A stretch of DNA of 64,000 nucleotides from positions 130,411 to 194,410 of IMG/VR virus record IMGVR_UViG_2713897211_000002; one strand, written 5' to 3'. Shown here piece after piece: positions 60,001 through 63,000 of the stretch. Made by a program: the position numbers. This DNA comes from a virus (taxonomy: Duplodnaviria > Heunggongvirae > Uroviricota > Caudoviricetes). The stretch's first letter is position 1. Every line of letters begins with the position of its first letter.

Positions 60001-63000
60001 ATCTCTATATCTAACCTATGTAAAACATATTCATGATATATCTTACAAGTAGGTACTATATAATATATATTATCACCAAATTTACCACTTGCTTTTATAT
60101 TGTATTTCATTTTATCTATTTTATATTTTAAATATTTTATTCTTTTATCATCGTATGTTTTACAAGAATAAGGACATGTATCAAATTCTCTCTTTATTTT
60201 ATTATCTAAAATACGTGGATCAAATACAACTGTATCTTTAATCCCTTTGACAATAATCATATTTTATCTTCTCCTTATACCATTTAACTATATCTGTATC
60301 GTTCCTCCTATTAAACCAAGCTCTTAATACGTAAATATTATCTTTCATATGATAATAATCTACATATACACCTTCTTTATCTTTTTGAAAATCTATATCA
60401 TATTCCCAACCATTTTCTTTCATTTCTTTAATATGTTTATCTCTGTCATCTTCTGTATTATATAAATAAACTATTTCTTCATCTCCAAATACATCCACAT
60501 TATTTCTATAAAGAATTTTTCCTTTCTCTTTTAAATAGTTAACAATAATTTTAGCTGATTCTAAATTTACCATATTGAAACACAACCTTTTAAATTATTT
60601 TATATTTTTTATTCAATTAATTGCTCATGTTTTCTTATTCTCTATCATCTATCAATCTTTATCCCAATTTATAGTATATTCATTAACTTCAAAAGCAAAT
60701 TTCCCATTTGTTTTAAGTAGAATTTCTTTAAAAGTTAAATCTTCATATTCACCACTTCCACAGCCATCACTTATATCTGAACTTTCAAATTTATCTACTA
60801 ATATATCATCAATAAATTTAAAATCTAACCATTCCCAACCACAAGGATGTCCATTTTCCACTGGGACTGCTATTCCACCACCAAAAACCTCATTCGCACA
60901 ACTATAAATACCTAATATAGTTTTATTATCATTAAAATCTAACTCATTTCTTTTCAATTTTAGTCCCTTCTTTCACTTCTTCTTAAATTCAAATTATGTA
61001 TAATTTAATATTCTTTTTAAATCTTTTTTCATCTGATTTAAATATTCTTCATCCTTGCACTCTTTTTCTTTATTATGTCCACTCATAACATATTCTTCTG
61101 TATACTTTAAAATAGCTTCTCCATTTAAACCTTCTGTGGCTCTTATTCTATATATAGTAAATCCCATAAACTCATCAACATTAAAAGGACTCCAAACCAA
61201 TCCATTTTTTTCTTTGCTGAACTCTTTTATATTTTTTAATTCTTTGTATTGTATTTTTTTCATGTTTTCCCCCTCCAAATTCTTTCACAGTATTTTTGAA
61301 ATGCGAACTTAATTACCTGAATAATTTAATATCTTTAAACCAAATTTTTTCATTGTCTTTTTTAAAGATTCAATATGTTTATTAACTTCTGAATCTTTAT
61401 CATCTTTAGATATGTTCATCTCTTTCCTTTCAATTTCTAAGTCAATAAGTCTCATATTAAGTTCTTGGAATAGAACATGTTTATCATAATCATCAAGCCA
61501 AATTTCATGTTTTTCTTCTACTCTAAAAGTTTCCTTATTAAACCTTTTTTCTTTTTCCAATCAACTCACTTCCTTGTCCAAGTTCGTGATTTTTTCCCAC
61601 CTCTATGGCATTTAGGGCAGCGAGTTGACTGTAAAAACTTGTTAGGGATTACATCCCATTCATGTTCGCATTTATTATGTTTCATTGTTATTTTTATATC
61701 ACCTTTTATATACTTACCAAGTACACTATATTCGTCACCTACTAAATCATAAACTTCCTTTTGAAATTGTTCTTGTGTTTTACATGTTTTCATCAATTAA
61801 GCCTGCTTTCTATTTTGATATATTTTAATTATAAAACACAGTTATTTTTTATACTATATACATTTCATTATTTAAGATGAAATAACTTTAGCAATTTATT
61901 TTTAATTTTTTTATTTTCTTTTTCTTCTAATAATTGTTGTAACTCTACCTCTAACTCTTTCAATTTCTCTTTGTATTTTTGTTCTACCTTTTCTATAGAT
62001 TTTGAATAAAGTTTAATCAAAATCTATAATAGGTTTATCAATCAAATTACCATCATGTAATTTGATTGATCTTATTGATAGCATTATATAAATATTTAAA
62101 CAATATTTTTTCTCACTATTTTATTAATTTTTATTTATGAGAATAATTACATTTATCTAATATTTTACATATATCAGCTATTGAAAATATAAATCCATTA
62201 ATTAAGTGCAAATTATTATTTTTCATAATAGCACATGTAGTATCTTCCTTATAAACTATATATTCTTTAGAATGTGAATTATATTTTACATTAAACACAG
62301 ATCAAGCACCTCCTATTACCTGATGTATGATAACATTGCTCCTCTAAAAATACAATACTTAATGATAAACTCATTTTTTCTCTGTTCTATTTCACGTAAT
62401 ATATAGTGTTATATTTATAAATCAATTATTTTTCTAATCGATTTACTTCGTTTGTACTTATATTCACTTCAAAGATTATCCAATCTGCATCTTCTTCTAC
62501 ACATTTTTTATCATATTTAAATTCTTTATCTATTAACATTTCAAAACAATCGTTTTGTTCATTTAGTTCAAAAACTGGACATTGTTTATGTCTTATGTCT
62601 CCAATATATATTGCTTTTATTTTTTTCATACTGTCCCTCCTCTTAATTCTATACCATCTTTGTATTATAAATTAATATCTAACTAATTCAAATCTATATT
62701 TTTGCTCTACATCTGGGTATTTTTCTTTATCCACTTCACTCATAAACATTTCATAAGGTCTTGCATAATCAAAGTCATCATACAATGATTTATAAATTAC
62801 ATATTTACCTTCATTTATTACCCAATTCCTCATAGGTATAAATAGTCTATTATCTTTATTAGCCAAAACTCTTATCTTATGGTTAGTTTCAGTTTCTATA
62901 AAATAACCAACTTCTTTTAAAGATAAATCTTTTTTAATCTCAAACTCGTCTACTGTTTGTGCTATTCCAATAGTTGTATATAGATAATTATTTAAATATC

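Follow-up and report, generated by a model that had tools for sequence, protein, structure and literature searches.

Our comparisons indicated, at a probability of roughly 0.8, that a short region of a Clostridium botulinum phage-plasmid is a composite recombination scar in which three unrelated pieces of DNA were joined at microhomologies. The region lies within a stretch of 64,000 nucleotides (nt), hereafter the window, which covers positions 130,411 to 194,410 of the IMG/VR virus record IMGVR_UViG_2713897211_000002 (Caudoviricetes). Piece A is a probable cassette made up of a conserved upstream region, an open reading frame (ORF) of 55 amino acids (aa), and a conserved 3′ hairpin. Piece B is a relic of 417 base pairs (bp) from the junction of a 180-aa gene and a 143-aa zinc-finger gene in another genome resembling the plasmid pRSJ2_2, and piece C is an 83-aa gene module common with a 262-kilobase (kb) C. 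botulinum element. The joints between A and B (6-9 nt) and between B and C (11 nt) would have formed by illegitimate, microhomology-mediated recombination among co-resident related elements. Most likely, a crossover at the right junction (J2) between two related elements came first and gave a transient state with two copies of the 180-aa gene, after which a deletion at the microhomology of the left junction (J1) would have removed most of the upstream copy.

The window DNA is part of the C. botulinum sequence NKSD01000009.1 (GCA_016989605.1; 205,370 bp), has a guanine-cytosine (GC) content of ~25%, and carries all of its ORFs of at least 150 aa on the minus strand. Precomputed Pfam matches on neighboring genes (YomU_Tube, YorF, AAA_24, RtcB, and IS605 OrfB) point to an SPbeta-like phage-plasmid, and the data indicate a highly mosaic representative of ~205 kb as the host of the region. 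Close relatives have been deposited as circular plasmids of ~197-215 kb, among them pRSJ2_2 (NZ_CP013709.1). A total of 24 loci were fetched, and 13 of them, representing nine alleles, are related loci around the 180-aa gene. In the labels used below, L001 is the window DNA in reverse orientation, L015 is pRSJ2_2, L018 is an unrelated contig carrying the 55-aa cassette, and L019, L020, and L022 belong to the 262-kb element. Orthologues of the 180-aa protein (72-95% identity) occur in C. botulinum elements of about 200 kb, and the neighborhood of the gene is strongly mosaic across the 13 loci, with gene content varying from strain to strain. In the phage collection, megablast with 59-64 kb of the window found no near match, and a search in distant mode returned only matches to homing-endonuclease genes and a few to a DUF1653 gene.

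Allele comparison of the 180-aa gene fragment

The full-length 180-aa gene resident in the window (59718-60260, minus strand) shares a direct repeat with a second site further upstream. The repeat copies at 59727-59852 and 61877-62002 have the same orientation, lie 2,150 bp apart, and are 84% identical over 126 ungapped nt (BLAST expectation value [E], 2e-34), which confirms the repeat that a sequence-only reading of this DNA had put at about 85% identity. When the surrounding 630-bp island was searched against all other parts of the window, candidate ends of mobile elements among them, this repeat was the sole significant second copy. The upstream copy belongs to a minus-strand remnant at 61868-62002 comprising ~44 terminal codons and the stop codon. 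It has no ATG, and its sole start codon, a TTG without a Shine-Dalgarno sequence, is located inside a hairpin arm; the absence of a proper start had been recognized earlier. The fragment is therefore a truncated copy, as expected of a mosaic remnant, and is probably not translated.

Two types of 3′ end occur among the alleles of the 180-aa gene. Type P is found in the resident gene, L003, and L007, whereas type Q is found in the fragment and in L008-L015, and the two versions differ sharply over the last ~50 nt (59718-59780 in the window; ~6480-6620 in L003, L007, and L008-L015). The resident 3′ end is identical to that of L003 and unlike the type-Q alleles. Over its last 54 nt, the fragment agrees with pRSJ2_2 and L008 at 52 positions but with the resident gene at only 40. 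Together with the 78-nt aligned segment that follows, 130 of 132 positions agree with pRSJ2_2. The first 77 nt behave differently, with no more than 67-68 matches to any sampled allele, which suggests that this part came from an unsampled one. Divergence is very uneven, with 13% over these 77 nt against 1.5% over the 132 nt that follow. The end of the pRSJ2_2 gene is itself a chimera, being type P through TTATTAGAAGAA and type Q beyond it. Type P goes with the absence, and type Q with the presence, of a zinc-finger gene downstream, and the P/Q switch looks like either a site of repeated recombination or an old tract of co-conversion.

Substitution patterns gave the same picture of a foreign origin. 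Against L015, the fragment shows eight synonymous and four non-synonymous differences, corresponding to proportions per site of 0.41 (pS) and 0.038 (pN) and a pN/pS ratio of 0.09; against the resident gene, the ratio is 0.21. The low value of 0.09 suggests that the divergence accrued inside a working gene. A decaying tandem paralogue should be nearest to the resident copy and should carry neutral-looking changes, but the fragment instead has foreign affinities at 52/54 and 78/78 positions and a pN/pS of 0.09. Judged by its alleles, the fragment was recently cut from a foreign type-Q allele and did not arise by decay of a resident-gene copy, so that its description as a decayed duplicate of gene 59718-60260 was mistaken as to origin. 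As a fragment it would be young and inert DNA, its divergence from the resident gene being allelic rather than the outcome of decay. An intact second copy at this place in related genomes, with no variation of the intervening cassette, was the pattern that the sequence-only reading had set against its own proposal; none of the 13 related loci (nine alleles) carries a second copy, whole or partial, and their gene content is strain-variable.

The 417-bp relic and its junctions

The fragment did not arrive alone. From 62002 to 61586, 417 bp of the window are 96.4% identical to L015 6001-6417 and contain the end of the 180-aa gene, its native spacer, and codons 1-69 of the 143-aa zinc-finger gene. 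The 71-bp native spacer between the two genes (61797-61867, minus strand) was carried along with the fragment. Together with the first bases of the next gene, it matches pRSJ2_2 at 78 of 78 positions and L008 at 75 of 78, and cannot be aligned to the corresponding segment of the resident gene. The following 76-aa ORF (61566-61796, minus strand) consists of zinc-finger codons 1-69, holding the first repeat of the 143-aa gene, and seven foreign codons, and its product is 100% identical over 69 residues to the pRSJ2_2 143-aa protein. A second block, 61263-59727, is 97.3% identical to L015 4590-6126 and spans genes of 89, 101, and 111 aa together with most of the 180-aa gene, and the window stretches between the two L015-matching blocks are unique to this lineage when compared with pRSJ2_2.

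In L008-L015, a gene of 141-143 aa directly follows the 180-aa gene and encodes two treble-clef zinc-finger repeats of the DUF4379/CapR kind; six alleles besides pRSJ2_2 have this arrangement. The 143-aa protein matches Pfam CapR and DUF4379, and both it and the 76-aa protein match phrog_559, annotated as 'HNH endonuclease' (E, 7e-33 and 4e-18, respectively), with the match of the 143-aa protein limited to the DNA-binding repeat region (profile positions 58-188 of 607). In its DNA sequence, the zinc-finger gene is similar to VSR and HNH homing endonuclease genes that are associated with introns in Staphylococcus and Bacillus phages. No nuclease domain (HNH, GIY-YIG, VSR, or LAGLIDADG) was found in the seven 141-143-aa homologues or in the 76-aa copy.

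These relations also bear on the genes between the repeat copies. As stated earlier, five small ORFs, all on the minus strand, separate the copies. The first (76 aa) natively lies downstream of the fragment, and the final three, of 94, 101, and 115 aa, natively lie upstream of the resident gene, as in pRSJ2_2; the five therefore do not form one cassette. The recombination scar suggested by the sequence-only reading thus holds, whereas the form proposed for it, a module inserted or deleted between direct repeats, does not.

The two sides of each junction are nearest to different genomes, with the cassette nearest to L018, the relic to L015, and the 83-aa module to L019 and L020. At J1 (61993-62002), between the 55-aa cassette and the gene fragment, the L018 homology runs to about 61990 and overlaps the tract of 180-aa gene homology that begins at 62002; the joint sequence is TCAAAATCTATAGAAAAGGTAG, and the microhomology AAA(T/A)CTATAG comprises six exact bases (CTATAG) and 9 of 10 positions overall. 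At J2 (61586-61596), where the 143-aa gene meets the upstream region of the 83-aa gene, the pRSJ2_2 tract ends at 61586 and the L019 tract starts at 61596, leaving an exact overlap of 11/11 nt, GAAAAAATCAC. This 11-mer is present in both putative parents, and the joint sequence is GGGAAAAAATCACGAACTTGG. Both joints of the relic lie inside reading frames, J1 within the 180-aa gene and J2 within the 143-aa gene, which argues for illegitimate, microhomology-mediated joining rather than exchange at gene boundaries.

Beyond J2, the 83-aa gene module (61293-61596, minus strand; ORF 61309-61560) shows 98.7% identity to L019, L020, and L022 across 304 bp. In the 262-kb C. botulinum element, the module stands in an unrelated gene context (L019/L020 4965-5268), and this degree of identity indicates a recent exchange between two distinct large extrachromosomal elements.

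The 55-aa ORF cassette

Part of the 630-bp island that had been described as non-coding contains a plausible gene. The 55-aa ORF (62131-62298, minus strand) starts with GTG and is preceded at 8-nt spacing by a strong ribosome-binding site, AGGAGGTG. It is kept with a start codon in L018, where the homologue P0009 (495-671; 58 aa, ATG start) has 76% protein identity and an intact frame. Window positions 62394-62134 are 88% identical to L018 399-659, and positions 62040-61990 are 84% identical to L018 694-744. Conservation starts near 62394, so that the upstream region of the ORF (62299-62394, minus strand) is included at 88% identity to L018 399-494; these 95 non-coding nt are as conserved as the ORF itself. 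A candidate promoter, TTGTAT, 17 nt, and an extended -10 element (TGT-TATCAT), was read from the upstream sequence, although a consensus scan did not list it, and the ribosome-binding site AGGAGGTG and the -10-like element are unchanged in L018. The unit may represent a fast-evolving small protein, or it may act partly as RNA.

In L018, the homologue of the 55-aa ORF and the nearby hairpin 2 (described below) lie between opposite-strand genes. The unrelated contig L018 has the ORF, whereas pRSJ2_2 and the 12 other related loci lack it, and among otherwise collinear relatives it thus shows the presence/absence behavior of a moron. The cassette has a GC content of 18.5%, below that of its surroundings. 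The 55-aa protein has no Pfam or PHROG match and, by tblastn, no relative in viral contigs or in plasmids. Its ORF is probably a small gene that forms a moron-like cassette with its flanks.

Hairpins at the 3′ end of the cassette

Two hairpins follow the 55-aa ORF. Hairpin 1, the perfect palindrome ATCAATCAAATTAC-CATCAT-GTAATTTGATTGAT with 14-bp arms and a 6-nt loop, was confirmed at exactly 62037-62070. Hairpin 2, which had been overlooked, lies 8 nt away at 61994-62028; this near-palindrome of 35 nt forms 12 perfect pairs, or 17 at 94% pairing. A 176-nt segment holding both has a folding energy of -37 kcal/mol (z = -6.4). A search for arms of at least 14 bp returned five records in the window, representing three distinct hairpins (31515-31552, 50821-50858, and 62037-62070), against a mean of 0.03 in first-order Markov simulations of the window.

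Hairpin 2 is kept in L018, with two A-T to G-C pair changes that affect both arms and retain the pairing. Its position beside the ORF in that contig suggests that it belongs to the 55-aa cassette and is older than the junction; an origin as an inverted duplication made by the rearrangement was rejected, given that L018 has the hairpin without the fragment. Most likely, hairpin 2 marks or stabilizes the 3′ end of the cassette transcript. Hairpin 1 shares only ATTACATGATG with L018, both of its arms being insertions in the window lineage. Neither exact nor variable-loop patterns of hairpin 1 gave any match in the genome, viral, and metagenome contig collections, nor did other copies occur in the window or the 24 fetched loci, as the sequence-only reading had proposed to search for. 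Within this sampling, hairpin 1 is specific to the lineage, and it would be an addition beside hairpin 2 that may contribute to transcript-end structure or may be a by-product of template switching.

Read along the minus strand, hairpin 1 runs into AAACCUAUUAUAG and hairpin 2 into GAAAAGGUAG, neither of which is a U-tract. A terminator scan flagged hairpin 1 marginally and on the plus (non-coding) strand only, and Rfam covariance models run on both strands of 61000-63000 gave no match at E ≤ 1. A sigma-70-like match (TTGAAT, 17 nt, TATAAT; 10/12) was noted inside hairpin 2 on the plus strand (62002-62030), directed toward hairpin 1; this match and the terminator-like hairpin 1 may be a coincidence of palindromes or a tiny antisense unit.

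The other two perfect hairpins, at 31515-31552 (14-bp arms, 10-nt loop) and 50821-50858 (16-bp arms, 6-nt loop), each lie 13-20 nt past a minus-strand stop codon and have no U-tract. The 31.5-kb hairpin is near-identical in two relatives and hence carries no covariation information, and a search of relatives with the other gave no match, possibly owing to low-complexity filtering. The placement of these hairpins suggests a common transcript-level role such as 3′-end formation, stabilization, or processing, and all three perfect hairpins of this element may belong to one class of intercistronic hairpins that act at transcript ends or in processing.

Neighboring genes

Directly downstream of the resident 180-aa gene, a 265-aa gene (58857-59654) matches no Pfam or PHROG entry, and none of the fetched relatives has a homologue of it. 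This gene fills the slot where relatives have the 143-aa zinc-finger gene or run straight into a 97-aa gene, and by this comparison it appears to be a further lineage-specific module replacement. On the other side of the island lie a 67-aa gene (62426-62629) and the DUF1653 gene (62672-63067), whose closest relatives at the DNA level are on other C. botulinum plasmids (pCBH, pCLD, and pCLK). An IS605 OrfB/TnpB gene is located ~4.5 kb upstream of the island, just past the window end (~66.8-67.9 kb; L001 2367-3479). This locus differs between two otherwise identical sources, with a 370-aa call in L001 and a 373-aa call plus an extra 42-aa call in L002 (1231-2583), and pRSJ2_2 lacks the element, judging from its block structure.

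Alternative explanations

Several observations weigh against a composite scar as described above. The first 77 nt of the fragment need a third, unsampled donor; the microhomology at J1 is short, with six exact bases; and the conservation and covariation of hairpin 2 come from a single comparison sequence, L018. The 55-aa ORF differs from its L018 homologue by 14 non-synonymous and 3 synonymous substitutions, a pN/pS of ~1 (n = 17 substitutions), and has no family match. On the transcribed strand, both hairpins lack the U-tract of a canonical intrinsic terminator, and a role at the transcript end is putative. Finally, no sampled genome has an intermediate, and the order and number of events are tentative.

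Two other explanations address how the fragment and its neighbor came to lie where they do. Ectopic homing, in which a free-standing zinc-finger gene and a co-conversion tract of the 180-aa gene end were copied to a new site after a double-strand break, is unlikely. The similarity of the 143-aa and 76-aa proteins to HNH and VSR homing endonucleases of phages, in their DNA-binding repeats, agrees with it, as does the covariation of P and Q ends with the absence and presence of the zinc-finger gene, which co-conversion would give. However, none of the seven homologues or the 76-aa copy has a nuclease domain, the similarity of target sites between the two locations does not exceed 6-9 nt, and the moved copy itself breaks off at codon 69, where a microhomology joins it to an unrelated module, which suggests that the endonuclease-like gene was a casualty of the event and not its agent. 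Tandem duplication of the resident 180-aa gene in situ, with neutral decay of one copy, is quite unlikely and is largely refuted by the allele comparison, even though it would account for two copies in the same orientation 2,150 bp apart, 84% identical over 126 nt, one of them without a usable start codon. On this explanation, the last 54 nt and the spacer should not agree with pRSJ2_2 at 130 of 132 positions while the same 54 nt agree with the resident gene at 40; the changes should not be mainly synonymous (pN/pS of 0.09 against L015 and 0.21 against the resident gene); and divergence should not jump between 13% and 1.5% in adjoining segments. Several of the fragment's differences are A-to-G changes at third positions, unexpected for decay in a genome of 25% GC, and the zinc-finger neighbor, which is absent downstream of the resident copy, moved with the fragment.

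The remaining explanations give the palindromes or the fragment a function of their own. It is very unlikely that the adjacent palindromes are active rather than a passive feature of transcript ends, either as a cruciform or hairpin site where breaks or template switching seed module exchange in this family of phage-plasmids, or as a binding site for the neighboring zinc-finger protein of homing-endonuclease descent; if they were, the scar would sit there because the palindromes cause recombination. The palindrome and its AT-rich flank were also considered as a functional DNA site (a replication origin, a packaging [pac] or nick site, or an operator for a dimeric protein), and this is highly improbable. 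A perfect palindrome with 14-bp arms is far beyond chance, a second near-palindrome lies 8 nt away, local GC falls to 17-20% (window, 25%), and folding of the segment is strong (z = -6.4). Yet the island has no iterons, direct or tandem repeats, or repeated boxes; cumulative GC skew falls steadily across the window with no inflection, and there is no strand switch; and the neighbors are small hypothetical genes, with no replication or terminase gene adjacent. Moreover, the palindrome is missing from L018 and from all related elements, which must replicate and package their DNA without it; no other copies were found anywhere searched; and the two other perfect hairpins of the window likewise lie just 3′ of a stop codon, which points to a role in the transcript. 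The origin or packaging-type site raised by the sequence-only reading thus found no support, although the palindrome may serve as an operator for a lineage-specific regulator. Least probable of all is that the 50-aa fragment ORF (62020-61868) is expressed as a coiled-coil micro-protein that modulates the 180-aa protein. Its frame is open throughout the homologous stretch, it was called by a gene caller, and its substitutions are mostly synonymous. Its sole possible start, however, is the TTG, which has no Shine-Dalgarno sequence and falls within the left arm of hairpin 2. A history inside an intact gene accounts for the synonymous bias, and the parts closest to the junction partners are near-identical to intact alleles, which leaves too little time for selection on the fragment itself to show. 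Two further candidates were rejected. A protelomerase-type telomere site does not fit a loop that is not palindromic, relatives with circular records, and the lack of such a gene nearby. A palindromic miniature mobile element, whether an IS200/IS605-derived palindrome-associated transposable element (PATE) or a miniature inverted-repeat transposable element (MITE), does not fit a single copy in the window and loci and zero exact matches in the collections.

A composite recombination scar would explain the apparent origin or packaging site as ordinary mosaic-junction debris with nameable donors. The region would then be a well-resolved example of microhomology-mediated module exchange between two large C. 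botulinum elements, an SPbeta-like phage-plasmid of ~205 kb and the element of 262 kb, and also an example of a truncated gene end that traveled with a degenerate homing-endonuclease-like gene and of a small ORF cassette whose hairpin shows compensatory changes. The current understanding of phage genome evolution is unchanged by it.

Comparison with known systems

Each part of the region has counterparts in known systems. Intercistronic RNA-processing hairpins are exemplified by the RNase III sites in phage early transcripts. Like these and like Rho-independent terminators, the hairpins described here are long, stable stem-loops just past a stop codon and between co-directional genes; unlike them, they have AT-rich stems and no U-tract on the transcribed strand. 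The neighbor of the fragment shares with free-standing phage homing endonuclease genes (HNH/VSR) a repeated treble-clef zinc-finger module and a presence/absence polymorphism tied to a variant end of the adjacent gene, but neither the 143-aa proteins of the relatives nor the 76-aa protein of the window has a nuclease domain.

A phage moron is an independent cassette of promoter, gene, and terminator inserted between phage genes. The 55-aa ORF resembles morons in having its own conserved upstream region and 3′ hairpin, in its absence from close relatives, in its low GC content, and in forming a separate unit between opposite-strand genes in L018. It differs in that its promoter and terminator are only putative, its hairpins lack U-tracts, and a single comparison gave no sign of purifying selection.

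The closest parallel is provided by the Hendrix-Hatfull model of phage mosaicism, in which illegitimate recombination leaves gene remnants at junctions, as in lambdoid phages and mycobacteriophages. As in those junctions, modules of different ancestry are joined abruptly here, with a few bases of microhomology within reading frames; truncated gene ends are left behind; and relatives carry different genes at the same position. The present case differs in its host, a ~205-kb SPbeta-like phage-plasmid of C. botulinum, in that one donor is a 262-kb extrachromosomal element, and in that the relic makes a direct repeat with the resident allele of the same gene. With these particulars, we regard the region as a case of ordinary phage and plasmid mosaicism.

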